Shown here one piece after another: positions 2,830-51,138 of a stretch of DNA of 64,000 nt. Source of the stretch: Thermoanaerobaculia bacterium. GTDB taxonomy: Bacteria; Acidobacteriota; Thermoanaerobaculia; Gp7-AA8. Within the stretch, counting starts at the first letter, position 1. Each line of letters opens with the position of its first letter. The stretch is taken from contig DATLXH010000026.1 of NCBI GenBank assembly GCA_035576005.1, positions 4,229 to 68,228 on the forward strand. The letters are read 5' to 3'. The notes under the pieces were generated by a model, which did no database searches, had not been told where the DNA came from, and saw nothing but the letters and a program-made list of their open reading frames with translations. Both the position numbers and the translations under genes were made by a program.

Positions 2830-3724
2830 AGGCGCTGGACGCAACTTGCGAACGATGAAGCTTCGCCACCGATTGCTCGATCATCATTCGTGCGTCGGCG
2901 TTCACAGCGAGACGATCGATTGCAGTCAGCGCGTCGGTCGCTGCCGACAGTAGCGCAGAGCGTCCAATGGCATCGCGAACGACGATCCTTTCCCCGGCCC
3001 CGCCATCCCGCGGCTGTTCAAGAGCACAGAGGTCGCGCAACAGCATGGCGTAGAGAGCCATGGCTTCCTTGACGGGTTCGGCCGACGAAATGACTGCTGC
3101 CATGGTCAGCAGCGCCGACACATCCCGGTCGACGGCGTAGCTGTGCAGCAGACCCATCAGGAGGGCCGACAGATTCTCGATCTCCTTCTGATCGAGGCGC
3201 AGCTCGGAGTATCCGTGCGGTGACCCAGTTCTGTCGGACACCGCTACGACGGACGATTCAAGATGCACAGACTGAGACCGCGAACGGATCGTCTGGAGCA
3301 GAAGATCGGGGGAGCGTGTGAGCAGGAGAAAGAGTGTGTCGCGCGACGGTTCCTCGAGGGTCTTGAGCAGGGAGTTTGCACCACCAACCGACAGCGACTC
3401 CGCAGGTTGAACGATGAAGACTTTCGTGCGTCCTTCGTAGGGTCGGAGGGTCGCCTCTGCAATCGCGCTGCGTACCTGGTCGATTGCGATCAGCTTGCGG
3501 TCGCCGGCGATCTCGAGATAGTGCACGTCGGGATGAATGTCGCGTCGCGTTTTGTCGCATGACACGCAGTCGTCTCCCATTGTGTGATTGAGACAGTTGA
3601 CCGTCAGAGCGACTGTTACCGCGAAGGCGCGAAGCTCCTCGGGTGAGCGCCCGTACAGGATTACCGCGTGATGAATCCCACCCCGCTGCGCGGACTCGAG
3701 GAGCAACTCTGAGGGAGAGGTCAT
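2828..3724 (-). CDS. holB: DNA polymerase III subunit delta' (HolB)
   Basis: AAA+ delta' signature: HHAVILYGRSPEELRAFAVTVALTVNC...C..C, KVFIVQPAESLSVGGANSLLKTLEEP. Confidence 0.8.
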   Translation of the reverse strand: MTSPSELLLESAQRGGIHHAVILYGRSPEELRAFAVTVALTVNCLNHTMGDDCVSCDKTRRDIHPDVHYLEIAGDRKLIAIDQVRSAIAEATLRPYEGRTKVFIVQPAESLSVGGANSLLKTLEEPSRDTLFLLLTRSPDLLLQTIRSRSQSVHLESSVVAVSDRTGSPHGYSELRLDQKEIENLSALLMGLLHSYAVDRDVSALLTMAAVISSAEPVKEAMALYAMLLRDLCALEQPRDGGAGERIVVRDAIGRSALLSAATDALTAIDRLAVNADARMMIEQSVAKLHRSQVASSA

Positions 3725-4401: not shown

Positions 4402-4414
4402 TTCGTCGCATTCT

Positions 4415-4700
4415 AGCCCGCATTTCTCACAGACCTTCGCCGTGAGACGACGGATAGCGGCCTGTCTCGTTCGTTGCACGGCAATTTCGCTCCTTGACAT
4501 AGTTGACACTGTGTCCAGAGCAACCGGGGCGGGTGTAGGGACGCAGGGCCTGCGTTCGGCACCCAGACATTCGCACCTGGAATTCTGCATCCCGGCATGA
4601 ACCCTCTTCCAAAGCGATGGCCGACGACAATCTTCTCGGTCGGGACAGGGTACCGGACGCACGCCGTGCGTCCCTGTGCTCGCCTTTCTCACAAACGTGC
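4415..4700. mobile_element. MITE-like element, long form, copy 2 (right terminus degenerate), inserted 13 bp upstream of the tmk start codon
   Basis: tcTAGCCCGCATTTCTCACAGACCTTCGCCGTGAGACGACGGATAGCGGCCTG... About 90% identical to 2541-2829 over the core. Confidence 0.7.
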
Positions 4701-4731
4701 GTGGAGGGTTCAGGCTCGAGGGCGTGCTGTC

Positions 4732-5673
4732 CTACGCCGGTCCTGCAGGGCCGAGTCCTTCGCGTAGTCCGCGGAGGTAGTGCTCGCGCATGAGCTTCTC
4801 GAATATCGCTGGTCGGGCGAGCGGCTTGAAGCGCTCGCCGATGCGAGCAAGCAGCCTGAGCCGGAACATCGCAGCGCTGGTGGCGGGTGGGCGCTCTGTG
4901 AGCTCGAACACGCCGAGAAAGTGACCTAGCTCGGGGTGCTTGCTGTAAAAGACGGCCCCCGATTTCCCAACCTTGTATTGCCGTTTCGCGAAAGAGTCGA
5001 CCGTGATCGGATGGTAGTGCCGCGTAACGGCCTTTGCGTTGTAGACGATCCGCAGGCCGGCGGCTTTCAGCCTGTATGCAAGCTCGATATCCTCCCAGGC
5101 CGCTGCCGGGAACGATGTGTCGAACGGTTGCGCGACCAGCAACTCGCGAGAGAGTGAGATGTTCGACGTGTAAAAGAAGTTGAATGGAACGTCCGCGCCG
5201 TCCTCGATCAGTCGATATCCGAATTGCAGGCCGTAATCGTTAATGTAATCCATGAACGGAGTGACACGCTCGTCGAGGGGCCATCCCGTGTACCCGAGGC
5301 ACGCGACGTTAGATGCCTGTTCAGGCTGCTGGTGGATGCGGTGGTGCTCGGCTAGAAAATCCTGCTCCGGAACCGTATCATCTCCGATGAACAGGATCCT
5401 CCTGCCCGCCGAGAGCGCTACCCCGCGATTTCGAGCGTTGCCCGGGCCCGAGTTGCTCTGCGACTCGAACCGGATCGGGTAGGGGAAGCGTCCGTCACGC
5501 ATCGCGGCGGAGATGGTGGCTGCAGTCGTGTCGGAGGAGCCGTCGTCGATGACGACGACTTCGAAGGCTGGAGCGTTTTTCTGCTGGCCCAGACCGTCGA
5601 GAACCTGCAGCAGCGTCGCGAGGCGATTGAACGTAGGAATGACAACCGAGAAGTCAGGAACAGTAGACGTCAT
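4732..5673 (-). CDS. Family 2 glycosyltransferase
   Basis: FSVVIPTFNRLATLLQVLDGLGQQ...VVVIDDGSSDTT (GT2 DxD region). Start trimmed to MTSTVPDF. Confidence 0.75.
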   Translation of the reverse strand: MTSTVPDFSVVIPTFNRLATLLQVLDGLGQQKNAPAFEVVVIDDGSSDTTAATISAAMRDGRFPYPIRFESQSNSGPGNARNRGVALSAGRRILFIGDDTVPEQDFLAEHHRIHQQPEQASNVACLGYTGWPLDERVTPFMDYINDYGLQFGYRLIEDGADVPFNFFYTSNISLSRELLVAQPFDTSFPAAAWEDIELAYRLKAAGLRIVYNAKAVTRHYHPITVDSFAKRQYKVGKSGAVFYSKHPELGHFLGVFELTERPPATSAAMFRLRLLARIGERFKPLARPAIFEKLMREHYLRGLREGLGPAGPA

Positions 5674-5678
5674 CACGA

Positions 5679-6434
5679 TCAGGCCGACGCGCCTCCATCG
5701 ACTGTCAGGACCTGCCCGGTGATGCCCGATGCCTCGTCGGACAGAAGAAATGCGATGCACGAAGCAACTTCATCGGGCGTGATCGCCCGGCGCATCGGAA
5801 TCATCCGCACCATCTCTTTGCGAGCCTCGGCAGGGATGTCGGCGGTCATCTCCGTGTCGACGAGGCCCGGAGCCACGCAATTGACACGGATTCCGCTCCG
5901 GCCAACTTCGCGAGCAAGTGAGCGGGTCATCGCGATGACAGCGCCTTTGGCCGCCGCGTAATTGGTCTGGCCCGCAATGCCTCTCATTCCGGAAAGGGAC
6001 GCGACATTGACGATCGATCCCGATCGCTGCTTCATAAATGCCGGCAGCACGGCGCCGGTGGTCCAGAAGGTTCCGTCCAGGTTCGTGTCGAGAACCTCGC
6101 GCCATTGCTCTGGTGTCATGTTGTACATGAGCGAGTCCCTTCGGATCCCCGCGTTGTTCACGAGGCCGTCTACTTTGCCGAAACGTTCGATGACCTGTTG
6201 AACGATCTCTTCCATACGACCCTTGTCGCGTACATCCCCTTCGAACGCACTGACCGCGGGAGTTTCCTGTGAGTCGGCCTGCGCCGCAGCCACGTCGGAG
6301 AGCAGTCGATCGGCGGCGTCCTTCCCGCTCATGAATGTGAACGCGACAGCATGCCCCGCGCTGAGCAATTTCAGAACTGTCGCCCTGCCGATGCCCCGCG
6401 ACCCCCCGGTAACAAGAATCGTTCGACGGGCCAT
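5679..6434 (-). CDS. Short-chain dehydrogenase/reductase (FabG-like 3-oxoacyl-ACP reductase family)
   Basis: ILVTGGSRGIGRA Rossmann motif, NNAGI, YAAAKGAV catalytic YxxxK. Ends 6 bp upstream of the GT2 start, so probably an operon. Confidence 0.75.
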   Translation of the reverse strand: MARRTILVTGGSRGIGRATVLKLLSAGHAVAFTFMSGKDAADRLLSDVAAAQADSQETPAVSAFEGDVRDKGRMEEIVQQVIERFGKVDGLVNNAGIRRDSLMYNMTPEQWREVLDTNLDGTFWTTGAVLPAFMKQRSGSIVNVASLSGMRGIAGQTNYAAAKGAVIAMTRSLAREVGRSGIRVNCVAPGLVDTEMTADIPAEARKEMVRMIPMRRAITPDEVASCIAFLLSDEASGITGQVLTVDGGASA

Positions 6435-6596
6435 GAGTGTGGTGTCTCGCAAATCGCTATGCATCCTTCGGCGCGCTGCAGGCCCGCTTGCTTCGCCGCC
6501 GCTCCTCAACGATGCCCCGCATCGTCTCCGTCACATCGACTCGCCATCGGCCCTCCATCACGCCGAATAATGCCCAGCTATTTGCGAGATACCACA

Positions 6597-7742
6597 CTAG
6601 TCTGTCGGCTTTCCCGTAAGGAGGCTGTCGCAGACCAGAGTCTTCGCGCCCGCTTCCGTGCAGACGGCAAACTGTTTGCCCTCGTACATGGCAACTCCCG
6701 CGTAATCGCCCCGCGCGTTGACGATGTAGAAGGTCACTCCGAAGTTCGGATTGCCTTTGTTGTTCAGAAGGCGTTTCTCGACCGTGTTCGCGCGGATCCG
6801 TTTCACTGCTTCCATTCCGGCGTCCTTCGGGCTCATTCCCTGACGCATCTTTTCTACAATCAGATGAGACGAGAGATTGAAGAGATTCGCTTCGCCACGA
6901 CCGGTCGATCCTGCGGCCCCAATGTCTCCGTCTACATAGAGACCAGCGCCGAGGATTGGAGAATCGCCGACGCGTCCCGGGATTTTCCAGGCGAGACCGC
7001 TCGTCGTCGTGACACCACAAACCTCGCCTCTCGCGTTCACTCCGTTGCAATTGATCGTCCCGTAGTAATGCTCACGGTTCATCATTCCCTTTGCCATCCG
7101 CTTGCGGGCGGCAAGGTCTTCCGCATCGGCCCGCTTGTCAGGGTCTAGAAAATGAGAGGGATCGATCATTCTTTTCCATTCGAGGTACTGCTTTCTGGAG
7201 TTAGGAGTATTGAGGTCATCTTCAATTTCGAACCCGAAGTTCCTGGCGAACCGCTGCGCGTCTTTCCCGACGATGAGATGGTGGTCGGTCTCGTGCAGCA
7301 CCTTGAGTGCGACGAGCGATGGAGTGCGGACGCCTTCGATAGCAGCCACGGCACCGGCGCGCTTCTTCGGCCCGTGCATGCATGAAGCGTCGAGCTGAAC
7401 GATCCCCTCCGAGTTGGGCAGTCCGCCGAACCCTACGCTGTCGTCGAGCGGGTCGAGCTCGTTGATGTTGACTCCGGCCACGACCGCGTCGAGGACATCC
7501 GCCCCGTCGGTAATCATCGTGAATGCCTTCTCCACGCATGTCATTTTCCCGCCATTCCGGTAGACATTGCCGTTGGCCGAAGAAATCACCACGGGACGTA
7601 CTGTCCGGCGCGTGATCATCGTCGGTCCCTGAGCCGTCAAGGTCCCGGCTGCTGCGGTTGCTACTGCTGCGATCGCGCTACTCTGCACGAACTCACGGCG
7701 ACTGACCTTGCTCATCGGCATCTCCCTTTGCTGCGCCCGCAT
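6597..7742 (-). CDS. Tat-secreted N4-(beta-N-acetylglucosaminyl)-L-asparaginase / isoaspartyl peptidase (Ntn-hydrolase, asparaginase-2 family)
   Basis: Tat-like N-terminus SRREFVQSSAIAAVATAAAG. GTINCNGVNARGEVCGVTTTSGLAWKIPGRVGDSPILGAGLYVD autoprocessing region. Confidence 0.7.
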   Translation of the reverse strand: MRAQQREMPMSKVSRREFVQSSAIAAVATAAAGTLTAQGPTMITRRTVRPVVISSANGNVYRNGGKMTCVEKAFTMITDGADVLDAVVAGVNINELDPLDDSVGFGGLPNSEGIVQLDASCMHGPKKRAGAVAAIEGVRTPSLVALKVLHETDHHLIVGKDAQRFARNFGFEIEDDLNTPNSRKQYLEWKRMIDPSHFLDPDKRADAEDLAARKRMAKGMMNREHYYGTINCNGVNARGEVCGVTTTSGLAWKIPGRVGDSPILGAGLYVDGDIGAAGSTGRGEANLFNLSSHLIVEKMRQGMSPKDAGMEAVKRIRANTVEKRLLNNKGNPNFGVTFYIVNARGDYAGVAMYEGKQFAVCTEAGAKTLVCDSLLTGKPTD

Positions 7743-7811: not shown

Positions 7812-7860
7812 GCTTCAGCCGGGTGCTATACGGATCTTTCGCCGGTCGTTTTTCTGACGC
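7812..7860. repeat. Solitary copy of the hairpin module (GCTTCAGCCGGGTGCTA..GATCTTTCGCCGG) that is amplified in the secA-dedA intergenic region
   Basis: cttcagccgggtgctatacggatctttcgccgg matches ctgaagccgggtgctacgaatctttcgccgcc at 13893-13925. Confidence 0.5.
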
Positions 7861-10582: not shown

Positions 10583-10628
10583 TTTCCTAAGGGTTGCACC
10601 TGCGCTGGTCGTGGTTTTCAGTCCGCGA

Positions 10629-10755
10629 AAGCTTTGGAGTGCGGCAGCCGCAGCTGCCGCTTTCCGGGTCATCCCGCGGATCAGATATCGGAGTCTCGAC
10701 TTGCCTCTCTCGTCGGACTCAAAAGCGGCAGCTGCGGCAGCCGCACTCCAAAGGG
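10629..10755. repeat. Nested palindromic hairpin repeat (family B) copy a: GCTTTGGAGTGCGGCAGCCGCAGCTGCCGCTTT ... AAAGCGGCAGCTGCGGCAGCCGCACTCCAAAG
   Basis: Two self-palindromic arms in inverted orientation around a ~57-bp spacer. Same structure at 19225-19358, 32885-32978 and 46511-46633. Confidence 0.7.
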
Positions 10756-10858: not shown

Positions 10859-13588
10859 ATGATGAATAAGGTTCTTACTTTGATTTTCGGCTCGAAGCAT
10901 GAGCGCGATGTCAAAAAGATGTTGCCGGTTGTGGCCGAGATCAACGCGCTCGAGCCTTCGATCGTCCCGCTCACGGATGAACAGCTGCGAGGCAAGACGC
11001 TCGAGTTTCGTGCCCGCCTTCGACCTGCCGTTGAGGCGATCGAGACCCTTCAGCGGGAGAGCCCCGCCGAGGAAGCAGAGATCAAACTTGCAAAAGAAGA
11101 GCTGAAGGCTCAGCTCGACGCACTCCTGCCAGAGGCGTTCGCTGTCTGTCGCGAGGCAGCGAAGAGAAGTGTCGGCATGCGGCATTTTGACGTCCAGTTG
11201 ATGGGAGGCATCGTCCTGCACAACGGCAGGATCGCAGAGATGAAAACCGGCGAGGGGAAGACCCTCATGGCGACCTTGCCGGTCTATCTGAATGCTCTGA
11301 CCGGACGCGGTATGCACGTGGTGACGGTGAACGATTACCTCGCGCGGCGGGACTCTGAGTGGATGGGTCGGGTCTACAAGTTTCTAGGTCTGAGCGTGGG
11401 AGTGATCCAGAACAATCACGGCGACCGCGAACGGCAGATCGCCTATGGCTCGGACGTCACGTACGGGACGAACAACGAGTTCGGATTCGACTACCTTCGC
11501 GACAACATGAAGTTCGACCTCGAGGCCATGGTGCAGCGAAGTCACGTGTACGCGATCGTCGACGAGGTCGACTCGATCCTGATTGATGAGGCGCGGACTC
11601 CACTCATCATCAGCGGCCCCTCTGAGGAGTCTGTCGACAAGTACTACTCGGTCGATCGAATCATTCCGCGTCTGGTCAAAGAGAAAGACTTTCAGATCGA
11701 CGAGAAGCAGCATACGGCTGTCCTGACTGAAGAGGGCGTGCTGCACGCCGAACAGCTGCTCGGGATCGAAAACCTTTACGACCCCGCGAACATGGACGTG
11801 CTCCATCACGTGAACCAGGCGTTGAAGGCACACACGCTGTACCGCGTGGACGTCGATTACGTGGTGACCGACGGCGAGGTGATCATCGTCGACGAATTCA
11901 CGGGAAGGCTGATGCCGGGCCGACGCTGGTCCGATGGACTGCATCAGGCAGTCGAAGCGAAGCAGGGGGTAAAGATCGAAGCAGAGAATCAGACGCTCGC
12001 CACGATCACGTTCCAGAACTACTTCCGCATGTACGAGAAACTCGGTGGTATGACCGGCACGGCCGACACAGAGGCCGCCGAGTTCGACAAGATCTACAGC
12101 CTCGAAGTCGTGGTGGTTCCTTCCAACAGGCCGATGGTCCGAGACGATCGTGCGGACCTCGTGTATCGCACGGAGACGGAAAAGTTCGCAGCGATCGTGG
12201 AAGAAATCAAAGAGCGACACAGTGAGGGGCAGCCGAGCCTTGTCGGTACCATCTCGATCGAAAAGTCCGAGCATCTTGGATCTCTGCTCAAGAAGCAGGG
12301 CATACCGCACGTCGTCCTGAACGCGAAGTACCACGAACGTGAGGCGGAGATCGTGGCGCAGGCTGGTCACAAAGGCGCCGTCACGATCGCGACGAACATG
12401 GCGGGGCGCGGCACAGACATCCTCCTCGGTGGCAACCCGGAGTATCTCGCGCTGCAGAAATCGAAAGGCGTCGAGGATCTTCTGGAGCGTAAGACGATCG
12501 AGGAAAAGATCAAGACGGCGTGGGATGAGGAGCATGCCGAGGTTGTCGATGCCGGCGGTCTGCACATCATCGGCACGGAAAGGCACGAGTCACGAAGAAT
12601 CGACAACCAGCTCAGAGGTCGTGCGGGAAGGCAGGGTGATCCTGGCTCGTCCCGTTTCTATCTTTCCCTCGAAGACGATCTCATGCGGATCTTCGGTTCC
12701 GATCGGATCTCCGGATTGATGCAGCGGCTTGGGATGGAAGAAGGAGTGCCGATCGAGCATGGAATGGTCAGCCGCGCCATCGAGCGTGCACAGAAACAGG
12801 TGGAGGGCCGGAACTTCGAGGCGCGGAAACATCTGCTCGAATATGACGACGTGATGAACAAGCAGCGGGCGTCGATCTACTCGCTGCGTCGCAACATCCT
12901 CGAGGGACGCGAGGGGCGTGAATACATTCTCAACGCCTCCGAAGATATCGTCGATTACCTCATCGAGACGCACCTGCCGCAGGATAATTCTTCCGAAGAG
13001 CCGAACCTGACTGAGTTCTGGGCCGAGATTTACGACTTCTTCGGGATCGATCCGAAATCTCTAACGTTCGACGCCGCGACGGCTGGTCGGGAGACCTTCA
13101 AATCCGAGCTCATTGACGCTTCCAGGAAGCGTTACGAAGAAAAAGAAGCGATGGTCGGCGCTGAGCTCATGCGCGTCCACGAGAAATATCTTCTCCTCCA
13201 GGTCATTGACGCTCAGTGGAAGGATCACTTGCTGGTTCTCGATCATCTGAAAGAAGGGATCGGCCTGCGCGGCTACGGTCAGAGGGATCCGCTCATTGAG
13301 TACAAGCGCGAGTCGTTCGATCTTTTCCAGTCGATGATGGAGCGAATCCAGGATCGCGTGGTCAAGTACCTCTGGAAGATCGAGGTGATGGTGGAGGGAC
13401 GCGAGGAGGCCGCACCTGCCCGTCTTCGCCGTGCGCCCGAGCCGCCGCGCCAGAACCTGATGTTTTCAGGAGCCCCGAAGGAGATGCAGGCCCCGATCAA
13501 GCGGCGCGAGGACAAGGTAGGACGAAACGATCCCTGTCCGTGCGGCTCGGGAAAAAAGTACAAAAAGTGCCATGGCACTGCCGCCTAG
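10859..13588 (+). CDS. secA: Preprotein translocase ATPase SecA, with C-terminal zinc-binding SEC-C motif
   Basis: [24 protein letters not shown]-like motor motifs, and [14 protein letters not shown] at the C-terminus. Confidence 0.95.
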
Positions 13589-13628
13589 GATCGAGGTGGG
13601 GACCTCGTAGTCATCCTCGAGGCTCACG

Positions 13629-13735
13629 ATGGCACCAGTCCTGCCGCCCGGCCGGCGTAAGCGCGAGGCACCAGTCTGCGGCCCAGCCGCCGAAGGCGCG
13701 AGGCACCAGTCTGCAGCCCAGCCGCCGAAGGCGGC
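13629..13735. repeat. Three tandem ~35-bp repeats (GGCACCAGTCTGCGGCCCAGCCGCCGAAGGCGCG)
   Basis: Direct reading of 13629-13735. The 3' part (CCGCCGAAGGCGGCG) is the reverse complement of the GCCGCCTTCGGCGGC hairpin in the 81-bp units. Confidence 0.6.
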
Positions 13736-13935
13736 GAAAGATCCGTAGCACCCGGCTTCAGCCGGGTGAATGCGGCGGAGAAAATCGAACAGCCCGCGGT
13801 AGCGGGCGACAGAGTGGCGGGTGCGTGGATGCCCGTGACGCGGTTCTGCCGCCCGCTCACGCGGGCTGTCTGGCTTGGCCGCTCTTCACCCGGCTGAAGC
13901 CGGGTGCTACGAATCTTTCGCCGCCTTCGGCGGCG
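13721..13935. repeat. Large inverted arrangement: hairpin module (CACCCGGCTGAAGCCGGGTG + ATCTTTCGCCGCCTTCGGCGG) in reverse orientation at 13721-13768 and forward at 13886-13935, about 115-bp spacer
   Basis: ccgccgaaggcggcgaaagatccgtagcacccggcttcagccgggtg versus cacccggctgaagccgggtgctacgaatctttcgccgccttcggcgg. Confidence 0.6.
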
Positions 13936-14320
13936 AGAGTGTCCTGGCTCGGTCCCTCCTGGGGGAAGGTCGGACCCAGGTGTGGCGCCGCGAATCTTTC
14001 GCCGCCTTCGGCGGCGAGAGTGTCCTGGCTCGGTCCCTTCTGGGGGAAGGTCGGACCCAGGTGTGGCGCCGCGGATCTTTCGCCGCCTTCGGCGGCGGGA
14101 GTGTCCTGGCTCGGTCCCTTTCTGGGAGAGGGTCGGACCCAGGTGTGGCGCCGCGGATCTTTCGCCGCCCTACGGCGGCGGGAGTGTCCCGGGCTCGGTC
14201 CCTTTTGGGGAAGGTTGGACCCCAGGTATGGCGGCGCGGATCTTTCGCCCCCCCCTACGGCGACGGGAGCGTCCGGAAGTGCGTTCCGGGGGAGATCAGA
14301 CCCCAGGCTTTGCCGCGGCC
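13910..14320. repeat. Tandem array of about five ~81-bp repeats (CGAATCTTTCGCCGCCTTCGGCGGCGAGAGTGTCCTGGCTCGGTCCCTCCTGGGGGAAGGTCGGACCCAGGTGTGGCGCCG), decaying toward the 3' end
   Basis: Units start near 13910, 13991, 14072, 14153 and 14236. Non-coding: lies between convergent secA and dedA. The 81-bp period explains the open frames on both strands. Confidence 0.7.
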
Positions 14321-14997
14321 TCGCGTTTGGACTCTCTGCTCGCTCTCCACCATTCGATGACACCCGGCAGAATGGACAGGATGATCACCACGATGATCAC
14401 GATGTGAATGTGCTTTTCAGCCTCGGGGAAGAGTTTGATGAGCGAGTAGCCAATCATGGTCATGCTGAAGACCCAGGCGATTCCGCCCACGATGTTGAAC
14501 ATCGCGAAGCGCCTGTAGGGCATGTTCGCCACGCCCGCGATCACGGGCGCGAATGTGCGAATCACCGGTACGAAGCGCGCGATGATGATGGTCTTTCCGC
14601 CGTGCTTTTCGTAGAACTCCTGCGTCTTGAGCAGATGCTTCTTCTTGAAAAGAAGTGAGTCGTCACGCTTGAAGAGTGCCGGACCGAATCGCTTTCCGAT
14701 CAGGTAGCCGGTCGCGTCACCGAGGATCGCGCAGGTGATGAGCAGAAGATTCAGATAGACGATATTCAGGTCGCCTTTCGCCGCGAAGAGCCCTGCTGTG
14801 ACAAGGAGCGAGTCTCCCGGCAGGAAGAAGCCGATCATCAGACCGGTCTCGACGAAAACGATGATTGCAAGACCGACGTACCCGCCCCATTGAATGAGCC
14901 CCTGGACGTCAGTTAGGAAGTGGAACGTGTCGCGAAGCCAGTTCAAACGGAAACTCCTGTAGAGATCTGAGTGCTGTGGCGACGATGCGATAGGCAC
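14296..14997 (-). CDS. DedA/TVP38-family membrane protein
   Basis: GFFLPGDSLLVTAGLFAAKGDLNIVYLNLLLITCAILGDATGYLIGKRFG, the DedA signature. Confidence 0.8.
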   Translation of the reverse strand: MPIASSPQHSDLYRSFRLNWLRDTFHFLTDVQGLIQWGGYVGLAIIVFVETGLMIGFFLPGDSLLVTAGLFAAKGDLNIVYLNLLLITCAILGDATGYLIGKRFGPALFKRDDSLLFKKKHLLKTQEFYEKHGGKTIIIARFVPVIRTFAPVIAGVANMPYRRFAMFNIVGGIAWVFSMTMIGYSLIKLFPEAEKHIHIVIIVVIILSILPGVIEWWRASRESKREAAAKPGV

Positions 14998-15078: not shown

Positions 15079-15256
15079 CGGCCACTAGTGGAGGGTGTCG
15101 CAAATCCCCCGGCATTCCTCGGGGATGATGAATGGTCGGATGCGAGGCGGCGCGACGCAGGCAATGCGGACATTGTTGAGGAGCGCCAACGAAGCAGCCG
15201 GCCGTTCAGCGCCCCGAGGAATGCTGGGGATTTGCGACACCCTCCACTAGCAGAGC
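15079..15256. repeat. About 178-bp element bounded by perfect ~40-bp inverted repeats (CTAGTGGAGGGTGTCGCAAATCCCCGGCATTCCTCGGGG) with TA at both ends. A further imperfect IR lies immediately upstream (15035-15078).
   Basis: Arms at 15079-15117 and 15218-15256 are exact reverse complements. Sits in the divergent region between dedA and the halogenase-like gene. Confidence 0.6.
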
Positions 15257-19173: not shown

Positions 19174-19224
19174 AGTTCCACCTTCAGCGCTTGCGCCCGG
19201 TCAGAAGTGTTCAAACGCGAGGGC

Positions 19225-19358
19225 GAAGCTTTGGAGTGCGGCAGCCGCAGCTGCCGCTTTTGCTTCGAACTCGGTTGACATCGACGGCCAACGGAGATTT
19301 CATCCCGGGAGTGACACAGAAAGCGGCAGCTGCGGCTGCCGCACTCCAAAGGCTTCGC
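19225..19358. repeat. Family B nested palindromic repeat, copy b (GGCGAAGCTTTGGAGTGCGGCAGCCGCAGCTGCCGCTTT ... AAAGCGGCAGCTGCGGCTGCCGCACTCCAAAGGCTTCGCC)
   Basis: Located in the 283-bp gap between the dehydratase and KS genes, inside the biosynthetic locus. Confidence 0.7.
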
Positions 19359-19456
19359 CCGCCTCCGAAGGTCGTTGCAGTAGGAATCCGGCATCGGGAT
19401 GACGTCTGGTGTCGTGCGTGTTGAGCTGAGTACCTCAGACCTTTTGTCTCAAGATC

Positions 19457-24218: not shown

Positions 24219-24295
<77 letters not shown>

Positions 24296-24301
24296 ATCCC
24301 T

Positions 24302-24387
<86 letters not shown>

Positions 24388-25698: not shown

Positions 25699-25747
25699 GG
25701 CTGGATATAGAACGCGCAACGCAGAAAAAGAACGAGGGAGTACGTCG

Positions 25748-25781
25748 TCTCGCGGCGAAGGTCTGTGAGAAATGCGGGTTA
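25748..25781. repeat. Solo right-terminus fragment of the MITE family (GGCGAAGGTCTGTGAGAAATGCGGGTTA)
   Basis: Matches the right TIR of the copies at 48355-48537 and 50956-51138. Confidence 0.6.
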
Positions 25782-32884: not shown

Positions 32885-32978
32885 GGGCGAAGCTTTGGAG
32901 GGCGGCAGACGCAGCTGCCGCTTTCTGTGTAGCGTCGCGATTTCACAAAAGAGGCAGCTATGCGGCTGTCGGAAGCGT
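32885..32978. repeat. Degenerate family B palindromic repeat, copy c (second arm decayed)
   Basis: ggcgaagctttggagggcggcagacgcagctgccgcttt, followed by an imperfect reverse arm. Immediately downstream of the rho stop. Confidence 0.5.
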
Positions 32979-42202: not shown

Positions 42203-42298
42203 CCCTTCCAGCAGCTTCACCGATCATTATCCGACTCTACAACAAGCAAAGATCGGATGAACAGGCGGGCATGCTGTTCACAAACCTGTTAGGCGCCT

Positions 42299-42370
42299 AA
42301 CCCGCATTTCTCACAGCTTTTCACCGCGAGGCGACGGATAGCGGCCTGTCTGAGTCGTTGCACAACGGCT
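42299..42370. repeat. MITE-family left-half fragment (taACCCGCATTTCTCACAGCTTTTCACCGCGAGGCGACGGATAGCGGCCTGTCT...)
   Basis: Shares left TIR and the GACGGATAGCGGCCTGTCT core with full copies; no right TIR. Confidence 0.55.
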
Positions 42371-44539: not shown

Positions 44540-44578
44540 TAGCCCGTGTCGCGGCAAAGGTCTGTGAGAAATGCGGGC
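44540..44578. repeat. Mini MITE derivative: left and right termini fused (ttAGCCCGTGTCGCGGCAAAGGTCTGTGAGAAATGCGGGCta)
   Basis: TA-flanked; carries both terminal motifs without the internal region. Confidence 0.55.
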
Positions 44579-44590
44579 TAGAATGGCAGC

Positions 44591-46473: not shown

Positions 46474-46510
46474 GAGCGCGGGGAGCCTAGCATGTTTCGA
46501 CCGCCTCGCT

Positions 46511-46633
46511 GGCGAAGCCTTTGGAGTGCGGCAGCCGCAGCTGCCGCTTTCTGTGTCACTTCATGAAGCGGTTGATTCATCCGCGTTCGACTCAAAAGCG
46601 GCAGCTGCGGCTGCCGCACTCCAAAGCTTCGCC
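46511..46633. repeat. Family B nested palindromic repeat, copy d
   Basis: ggcgaagcctttggagtgcggcagccgcagctgccgcttt-43 bp-aaagcggcagctgcggctgccgcactccaaagcttcgcc. In the divergent purA/hutH intergenic region. Confidence 0.7.
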
Positions 46634-48340: not shown

Positions 48341-48354
48341 GGCTTTGTCGCCGT

Positions 48355-48537
48355 AGCCCGCATTTCTCACAGACCTTCGCCGCGAGACGACGGATAGCGG
48401 CCTGTCTCGTTCGTTACACGGCAATTTCGCTCCTCGACATAGTGTCGACTATGCCTTCGTCGCAAAATCGCCGTGCGCCTCGCATCCAGGCCACTCTCCG
48501 CCGTCTCACGACAAAGGTCTGTGAGAAATGCGGGCTA
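48355..48537. mobile_element. MITE-like element, short form (~183 bp), complete, TA-flanked
   Basis: cgTAGCCCGCATTTCTCACAGACCTTCGCC...GGCGAAGGTCTGTGAGAAATGCGGGCTAga, about 90% identical to 50956-51138. Confidence 0.8.
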
Positions 48538-50955: not shown

Positions 50956-51138
50956 AAGCCCGCATTTCTCACACTCCTTCTGCTGCGGCAGCGGATAGCG
51001 GCCTGTCTGCTTCGTTGCACGACGGTTTCGCTCCTCGACATAGTGTCAACTATGCCCTCGTCGCGAAACTGTCGTGCGCCTCGCATCCAGGCCACTCTCC
51101 GCTGCCTCGCAACGAAGGAGTGTGAGAAATGCGGGCTA
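50956..51138. mobile_element. MITE-like element, short form, complete, TA-flanked
   Basis: ctAAGCCCGCATTTCTCACA...TGTGAGAAATGCGGGCTAca. Between the cobB start and the 3' end of the surA-like gene. Confidence 0.8.

Follow-up and report, generated by a model that had tools for sequence, protein, structure and literature searches.

We analysed a 64,000-nt stretch (hereafter the window) of contig DATLXH010000026.1 from a Thermoanaerobaculia bacterium, in which a tract of nested repeats fills the gap between the convergent genes secA and dedA. The core of this tract, positions 13720–13934, is one copy of a family of ∼205–215-bp palindromic doublets that is dispersed in Thermoanaerobaculia genomes and whose arms in related loci bracket a gene for a Y1 (HUH) transposase. 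We therefore regard the tract, with good though not full confidence, as a nest of transposon-derived extragenic palindromes and not as a dedicated locus. It is a repeat nest of an already known kind, without demonstrated function. A sequence-only reading of the same DNA had treated the tract as a unique local feature, a view that does not survive the finding of a dispersed, transposase-linked family; the repeats it had listed are real and lie mostly where it had placed them, with corrections to a spacer, to the last of the long tandem units and to a solitary copy elsewhere in the window, as described below.

The 215-bp element consists of two inverted half-elements, each composed of three hairpins: B at the outer end, then GTAG followed by hairpin A, and finally hairpin C (Table 1). 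The tetranucleotide GTAG occupies positions 13745–13748 and its complement CTAC positions 13907–13910. By repeat search, the outer parts of the two halves formed inverted 50-nt arms (13721–13770 and 13885–13934) that are 98% complementary, in agreement with the earlier description of a hairpin module in reverse orientation on the left and forward on the right. The 114 nt between these arms had been taken for a ∼115-bp spacer. They contain a further inverted repeat (13789–13813 and 13845–13869) and are the centre of a single 215-nt palindrome. Both hairpin strings were found in the window only within the tract, with 0 chance matches expected. The solitary module copy reported at 7812–7860 is reduced to a fragment of ∼33 nt, which comprises the 3′ half of hairpin A, the linker and the beginning of hairpin B and holds no complete hairpin. 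We considered a cUUCGg tetraloop for hairpin B and rejected it, since in the register of the stem only 3 nt remain for the loop (TTC on one strand, GAA on the other). In DNA, triloops of the type C-GNA-G have high stability, and such a triloop at hairpin B would fit recognition as single-stranded DNA (ssDNA).

A 19-base arm pattern was scanned against one genome per species. It matched 57 eight-kb blocks of a single Thermoanaerobaculia metagenome-assembled genome (MAG), SMAG_U11946, as well as five blocks of SMAG_U11898 (Thermoanaerobaculia), one of SMAG_U4539 (Thermoanaerobaculia, locus L112) and one Pyrinomonadaceae contig (L007), and in many blocks + and − matches lay ∼185 bp apart. About 45 further matches in other phyla showed no other similarity and were treated as chance. 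BLAST of the tract against the related loci gave E-values down to 3e-23 over 13706–13934, with most alignments ending at 13719–13721 and at 13934, and a MAFFT alignment of 40 full-length copies revealed a common plan with the same ends as the window element. In this plan, each half runs from a terminal hairpin B (GCCGCC-GNA-GGCGGC) over the linker GAAAGATCTGTAG, hairpin A and a variable stretch to hairpin C (GCCCGC-GNA-GCGGGC), beyond which a short variable centre is followed by the mirror image of the whole half. An nhmmer profile of the half-element detected 142 halves in 65 loci (57 of these loci from SMAG_U11946); within the window it found only the two halves of the element itself, at 13719–13815 (−, 53 bits) and 13843–13934 (+, 49 bits). 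Most half-elements were paired in inverted doublets, with solo halves and clusters also present. L007 carries a full-length homolog of the window element, and in L112 whole palindromic elements, each with a ∼60-nt spacer, form a 268-bp tandem array of 2.6 units (2860–3546). Many MAG copies are flanked by modules that are themselves repeated, which places the elements within mosaics. A GTCATCCTGAGC...-type motif recurs along the outer margin of repeat mosaics (window 13611–13640; L115 3905–4020; flanks of, for example, L029 and L068). In L115 it forms a ∼100-bp palindrome in the syntenic secA–dedA gap, and it may represent a further repeat family or belong to composite elements as an outer module.

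The three hairpins are well conserved as structures. Across 86 aligned half-elements, with pairs counted over all three hairpins, 97.3% of the cells were paired, and double changes were seen in 8 pairs, compared with 2.3 in column shuffles and 1–3 when the partners were slid. For example, pair 65/77 of hairpin A was GC in 69 halves and CG in 17, with none unpaired, and pair 98/108 of hairpin B was CG in 73 and UA in 12. The CTAC columns were invariant or nearly so, hairpin C was kept in all copies, and hairpin A of the window differs at several positions from the MAG consensus while still being fully paired. As these counts include related copies, they indicate constraint or copying from compensated masters, not independent events. 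Folded as ssDNA, each 50-nt arm formed two hairpins (z about −5), and the whole 215-nt element reached −110 kcal/mol (z = −16.9).

The link to a transposase came from searching six-frame open reading frames (ORFs) of all loci with two Y1 transposase sequences that served as bait only; the candidates were verified by Pfam and NCBIfam. In locus L092, a 150-aa ORF was identified as Y1_Tnp (Pfam, 91 bits) and passed the NCBIfam model transpos_IS200 (72.4 bits, cut-off 55). It lies between a left half-element at 4892–4989 and a right one at 5490–5587, whose 98-nt arms are 92% complementary. The right arm starts within 1–2 nt of the Y1 stop codon, too close for a separate transposon end to fit in between. 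When the protein was aligned with solved structures of TnpA (from Sulfolobus elements, ISDra2 and IS608), its HUH motif and catalytic tyrosine lined up with theirs, and its score on the NCBIfam RAYT model NF047646 (34.9 bits) is under the cut-off of 80. A database search returned >2000 homologs, mostly from Acidobacteriota metagenomes and nearly all with one contig per cluster, which are named IS200/IS605 transposase or RayT (the latter label from JGI). Four more loci carry homologs that are 61–79% identical, each bracketed by B-A-C / C′-A′-B′ arms (Table 1); the transposase-bracketing arms in relatives are inverted, ∼68–98 nt long and 82–92% complementary. Because the arms directly bracket a Y1 gene in five related loci, the ORF-less 205–215-bp palindromes are non-autonomous derivatives of a ∼700-bp Y1 (HUH) element and its abundant form. 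The sampled blocks contain at least 48 doublets, versus two gene-bearing copies in SMAG_U11946. In L083, a more distant Y1 gene lies between 56-nt arms of different sequence, which again start with a GC hairpin and a GAA loop.

Several other features of these loci were recorded. The L092 transposase element is flanked, at a distance of 120–153 nt, by outward-facing half-elements (4640–4738 and 5708–5800) that abut the ends of two convergent genes, and it looks as if the full element lies within or beside a split doublet. In all five loci, the stretch from the left arm to the Y1 start codon contains a conserved CCGAGGTAYSAT...CGGGACTTCC motif (L092 4990–5037; about 1920–2000 in L124, L125, L126 and L127), which may serve the transposase as a promoter or in the control of translation. 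SMAG_U11946 also encodes a true RAYT (L082 7052–8000, −; NCBIfam REP_Tyr_transpos 82.7 bits, cut-off 80), which is incomplete in the sampled block and lies 2.4 kb from, and thus not adjacent to, the nearest element.

At the ends of 48 doublets we found no target-site duplication of ≥3 bp beyond chance. This agrees with the 'peel and paste' mode of Y1 elements and excludes a miniature inverted-repeat transposable element (MITE) of the DDE type; such a MITE would share the terminal inverted repeats (TIRs), but the missing duplication and the partner enzyme, a Y1 HUH protein and not a DDE one, led us to reject it. All copies were intergenic except for one apparent overlap with a crudely called ORF. 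With gene calls that were crude and GC3-based, 37 copies could be classified by their neighbours: 17 between convergent, 16 between tandem and 4 between divergent genes, compared with a random intergenic expectation of 25/50/25%. The copies are biased towards gene 3′ ends.

The rest of the tract consists of two head-to-tail arrays, one on either side of the element. The three 35-bp units noted earlier were recovered by Tandem Repeats Finder as 2.9 units; each carries a partial or complete hairpin B with its flank, unit identities are 86% and 78%, and the last one runs into the left end of the element. On the right, each 81-bp unit begins with ∼26 nt from the outer end of the right arm, namely the linker ATCTTTC and hairpin B′, which are all that the units have in common with the element, and continues with an interior of ∼55 nt. 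About five such units had been counted. Four are good, but the fifth is only 68–70% identical and extends into dedA, where it overlaps the stop codon (14296–14298) and the last ∼8 codons, the variable C-terminal part of the gene. Moving off the element, neighbouring units are 97.5, 95.1, 87.1 and 70.5% identical. The interior was not found elsewhere in the window, in any of the related loci or in the metagenome collection. A metagenome scan with a 20-base interior pattern gave four matches, all of them chance matches in coding-like sequence without other similarity, and a derivation of the interior from the right half of the element was rejected as well (score 16 against a shuffle mean of 13.9; 441 of 2000 shuffles scored as high or higher). 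The 35-bp unit could be derived from a module in the MAG flanks, a weak lead given that the alignment score was almost wholly due to hairpin B.

Table 1. Features of the secA–dedA tract and related loci. Coordinates are those of the window; a dot marks features given without a strand.
Feature	Position	Strand	Basis or detail
215-bp palindromic element, two inverted half-elements	13720–13934	.	BLAST, nhmmer, ssDNA fold
Hairpin B, left terminal, GCCGCC-GAA-GGCGGC	13721–13735	.	sequence, arm fold, covariation
GTAG then hairpin A, left, CACCCGGC-TTCA-GCCGGGTG	13745–13768	+	sequence, inverted repeat, fold, covariation
Hairpin C, left inner, GCCCGC-GGTA-GCGGGC	13792–13807	.	inverted repeat; conserved in all copies
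Hairpin C′, right inner, GCCCGC-TCAC-GCGGGC	13851–13866	.	inverted repeat, alignment
Hairpin A′ then CTAC (minus strand: GTAG + hairpin)	13887–13910	−	inverted repeat, fold
Hairpin B′, right terminal, GCCGCC-TTC-GGCGGC	13920–13934	.	inverted repeat, fold
35-bp head-to-tail array, 2.9 units	13631–13733	+	Tandem Repeats Finder, 89% matches
81-bp head-to-tail array, 4.1 units	13913–14249	+	Tandem Repeats Finder, 92% matches, score 547
Fifth, degenerate 81-bp-type unit	14240–14322	+	68–70% identical
Arm remnant (∼33 nt) in another intergenic region	7812–7846	+	28-nt BLAST matches, 89–93%
secA	10859–13588	+	Pfam SecA_DEAD, P-loop_SecA, SecA_SW, SEC-C; named SecA homologs in Thermoanaerobaculia
VTT/DedA-family membrane protein gene (dedA)	14296–14997	−	Pfam VTT_dom
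Further arm-bracketed Y1 loci			L124 (second paralog, SMAG_U11946); L125, L126, L127–129 (other samples)

By analogy with TnpA of IS200/IS605 and with RAYT, the transposase would recognise the arm hairpins in ssDNA and would move or copy doublets to intergenic sites without target duplication; a single doublet would thus have inserted between the convergent secA and dedA. Judging from the anatomy of the tract, the outermost hairpin B and its flank would later have been amplified head to tail, with a period of 35 bp on the left and 81 bp on the right, the newest units being those next to the element. The most likely route would be replication slippage or unequal recombination between direct copies of hairpin B and linker. 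Any effect on the 3′ ends of the secA or dedA transcripts would be a putative by-product.

Some observations weigh against this explanation. Overall identity between the window copy and the MAG copies is only ∼70%, the 64-kb window, which is the part of the genome covered, contains no Y1 transposase gene, and no movement of the window element, for instance as a pair of filled and empty sites, was observed. The true ends of composite subfamilies may lie further out than the ends we used, which weakens the test for target-site duplications. With regard to the arrays, the interior of the 81-bp unit is without a detectable source, single 81-nt units folded no better than shuffles (z = +0.9 to −1.8), and the mechanism of amplification is something we infer.

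Alternatively, the transposase could have produced the arrays by cutting and rejoining ssDNA aberrantly at one hairpin-B end after another, in place of slippage or unequal recombination. In both arrays, hairpin B, which is outermost in the arm, marks the start or the end of every unit. Arrays or duplicates of end modules are also seen beside elements in the MAG and in L112, and published models have RAYT processing circular intermediates into REP (repetitive extragenic palindromic) dimers and arrays (PMC3733652). However, the units are devoid of hairpin A and of the GTAG/CTAC tag, the parts most like a recognition site, and a 26-nt direct repeat is enough for slippage or unequal crossing-over. 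We consider a transposase origin of the arrays unlikely, if worth keeping in mind.

A different explanation takes the repeats as genes for a structured small RNA (sRNA) of the Acido-Lenti-1 class, which would form an inverted pair and a tandem array and act as RNAs in trans or as stabilisers or terminators in the 3′ untranslated regions of secA and dedA. Acido-Lenti-1 is an RNA motif described by Weinberg et al. 2010 (PMC2864571; Rfam RF01687), and Rfam files this two-hairpin motif as an sRNA. At gathering thresholds, Rfam reported two tRNAs as the only matches in the window and none in the tract; the best sub-threshold match of the left arm was Acido-Lenti-1, at 23.7 bits against a gathering score of 37 (E = 0.005). 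Both arms of L007 passed the gathering score, with 55.4 and 40.0 bits on opposite strands, and some RF01687 seed members are close in sequence to the window arm. Furthermore, the hairpins co-vary, the copies favour gene 3′ ends, and seed members from Lentisphaera stand in same-strand arrays with periods of 69–74, 110–115 and 192–200 nt, within mosaics of small hairpins. Covariation is, however, equally expected of ssDNA hairpins that are recognised by a Y1 transposase, and the element is a perfect two-strand palindrome with no defined strand. Within the tract, we found no sigma-70 promoter-like site beyond chance and no more intrinsic terminators than chance would give (2 versus 1.0 expected). 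In five loci a transposase gene is physically enclosed by the arms, and the arms from Thermoanaerobaculia fall under the Rfam threshold or go undetected: none of the scanned SMAG_U11946 loci had a copy at the RF01687 gathering score, and the transposase-flanking Thermoanaerobaculia arms gave no RF01687 match at E ≤ 1. Taken together, a role as sRNA genes appears improbable, slightly more so than arrays of transposase making. Since the transposase-bearing loci gave no match, we do not claim membership in RF01687; the window arm works like Acido-Lenti-1 and is probably a distant relative, not a member by score.

A bolder proposal would turn this relationship around. Acido-Lenti-1 might be not an RNA gene but the DNA-level terminal arm of TIRtrons (see below) and their ORF-less derivatives, and arrays of the outer hairpin, here and in Lentisphaera, might be footprints of ssDNA end joining catalysed by the transposase. 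We put this forward as speculation that is unlikely to hold. If true, such arrays would be a readable record of Y1 transposase activity. The lead that an Rfam 'sRNA' family, RF01687, is possibly a transposon end is the sole point of wider interest in the tract.

Assembly artefacts, to which a repeat-rich metagenomic region is prone, could in principle account for the copy numbers or for the arrays. The first two 81-bp units are 97.5% identical, and in the closest relative the contig stops 57 nt past secA. But the units differ by diagnostic substitutions and 1–4-nt indels in an ordered gradient, unlike the outcome of collapse or chimerism, and the flanks join secA and dedA cleanly, so we give this explanation little weight. 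That the 81-bp array encodes a repetitive protein or extends the C-terminus of a neighbouring gene product, as might be suggested by the long ORFs that cross it in four frames and by a period that is a multiple of 3, can be dismissed with near certainty: the units are spaced 81, 81, 82–83 and 83–85 bp apart, so that a repeated peptide would change frame between them, GC1/GC2/GC3 of ORFs across the arrays is flat (0.62–0.72; real genes here have GC2 of 0.36–0.49 and GC3 of 0.69–0.76), Pfam found no significant family in ORFs crossing the repeats, and secA and dedA end at normal positions compared with their orthologs. The flat codon-position GC and the lack of a Pfam match uphold the earlier description of a non-coding tract. 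That the tract is not a CRISPR array was likewise correct, the units being contiguous with no spacers; matches to CRISPR-DR families were only sub-threshold hairpin matches (17–19 bits, cut-off 45).

Returning to the transposon-derived palindromes, the closest known kind is the TIRtron / TIR-repeat arrangement. Di Nocera, De Gregorio & Rocco 2013 (PMC3733652) described genes for tyrosine transposases with long TIRs ('TIRtrons' or 'TIRYT'), the TIRs of which can form repeat families as singles, dimers and clusters. Their study contains a sharply defined, Acidobacteria-specific group of transposases (Koribacter, Terriglobus, Acidobacterium and Granulicella) and a repeat family formed by the TIRs of Koribacter versatilis ORF1552. 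As in TIRtrons, a small Y1 (HUH) gene stands between long, partly self-complementary TIRs (here in relatives), the same TIRs recur between genes in moderate abundance (as singles, dimers or clusters), and the host belongs to the Acidobacteriota; BLAST (E to 3e-23) and nhmmer (53 and 49 bits) show homology between the window sequence and the TIRs of these relatives. The class Thermoanaerobaculia, in contrast, lies outside the genomes of that paper, the likeness noted here is one of arrangement, and head-to-tail arrays of the outermost hairpin alone, with 35- and 81-bp periods, were not described there.

The element also resembles REP/REPIN-RAYT systems (Bertels & Rainey 2011, PMC3116915; PMC5581495) and the enterobacterial bacterial interspersed mosaic elements (BIMEs). 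GTAG stands directly 5′ of a hairpin, an inverted pair forms a long hairpin doublet, the Y1 partner is present in one or two copies, and the repeats reach a high copy number in extragenic sites, with gene 3′ ends preferred; clusters and tandem reiterations bring flanking DNA along, as in REP/BIME. Unlike the single 20–40-nt REP, however, the arms are 70–98 nt long with three hairpins, the bracketed protein passes the IS200 model and fails the RAYT one, and head-to-tail arrays, which are rare in GTAG REP families, are found here. With IS200/IS605 and their ORF-less derivatives (palindrome-associated transposable elements, PATEs), the family shares the transposase fold and catalytic motifs, a full element of ∼700 bp like IS200, the lack of a target-site duplication, end hairpins and an excess of ORF-less derivatives over full copies. 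Classical IS200/IS605 elements have asymmetric ends without terminal inverted repeats, whereas the arms here are long, symmetric and inverted. In the RF01687 motif, a hairpin of 8 bp with a 4-nt loop is followed directly on its 3′ side by GCUA, then by a linker of ∼12 nt, a 5–6-bp GC hairpin with a 3-nt loop and a short tail, all of which the window arm shares; the motif too occurs in Acidobacteria with many copies per genome, and its seed members also stand in same-strand arrays. Rfam lists it as an sRNA of unknown function, while here the corresponding sequence is the inverted end of a DNA element.

The earlier description of secA and dedA converging across the tract was confirmed by Pfam, with SecA on the + and VTT/DedA on the − strand, so that the repeats lie between both 3′ ends. 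From the secA stop (13588) to the dedA stop (14296), the gap measures 707 bp and has ∼67–71% G+C, compared with ∼58% in the flanking genes. SecA homologs put the window in Thermoanaerobaculia, Acidobacteriota. The dedA product is 80% identical to its ortholog in the related locus L115 from residue 18 on, and the true dedA start is probably near 14946. L115, whose SecA is 83% identical and whose gene order (secA–dedA–oxidoreductase) is the same, has a gap of 220 bp with a different palindrome and none of the repeats of the tract. L114 (SecA 95% identical) differs from the first base after the secA stop, and its contig ends 57 nt further on; relatives with an 81% identical SecA have another downstream gene. 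The content of the secA–dedA gap is thus lineage-specific. Repeats of this type may contribute to breaks in short-read assemblies of this lineage, a link that L114 does not show, as its tail is without similarity to the tract.

For annotation, these results mean that a 700-bp tract beside an essential gene is selfish-repeat debris, which should be masked as a repeat and left out of searches for regulatory RNAs, CRISPR-like arrays or ORFs. A repeat family of Thermoanaerobaculia and its likely parent transposase are now defined in a poorly studied class; the understanding of secA or dedA is unchanged, and this kind of element has been described before.

Nor is the tract unusual within its own genome, as had been proposed, since the window contains several other palindromic repeat families. 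A second dispersed family of ∼185 bp, unrelated to the element, is present at 2539–2811, 4414–4686, 48354–48537 and 50957–51138, with fragments at 25743–25781, 42294–42363 and 44544–44585; its copies are mutually 74–97% identical, and those at 48354–48537 and 50957–51137 are self-complementary (palindromic). A third palindromic family, of ∼135 bp, was found at 10625–10753, 19221–19362, 46508–46633 and 32885–32930. One of its copies lies just upstream of secA, as is also the case in L114 (1087–1229) and L115 (869–1007), the two closest relatives. Furthermore, a ∼165-bp self-complementary repeat occurs at 15085–15250 and 6436–6601. The first of these copies fills the next gap, between dedA and a FAD-oxidoreductase gene, so palindromic elements stand on both sides of dedA. 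SMAG_U11946 contains many unrelated 21-bp (also 42/63-bp) tandem arrays of up to 21 copies, some of which share the unit ACGTGCGGCGTCACGTCCGGA (L051 419–967, L075 2–274, L032 3079–3259, L065 5276–5564 and L047 4940–5363). Finally, the two tRNA genes of the window, tRNA-Lys(CTT) and tRNA-Leu(TAG), are adjacent at 24220–24387.

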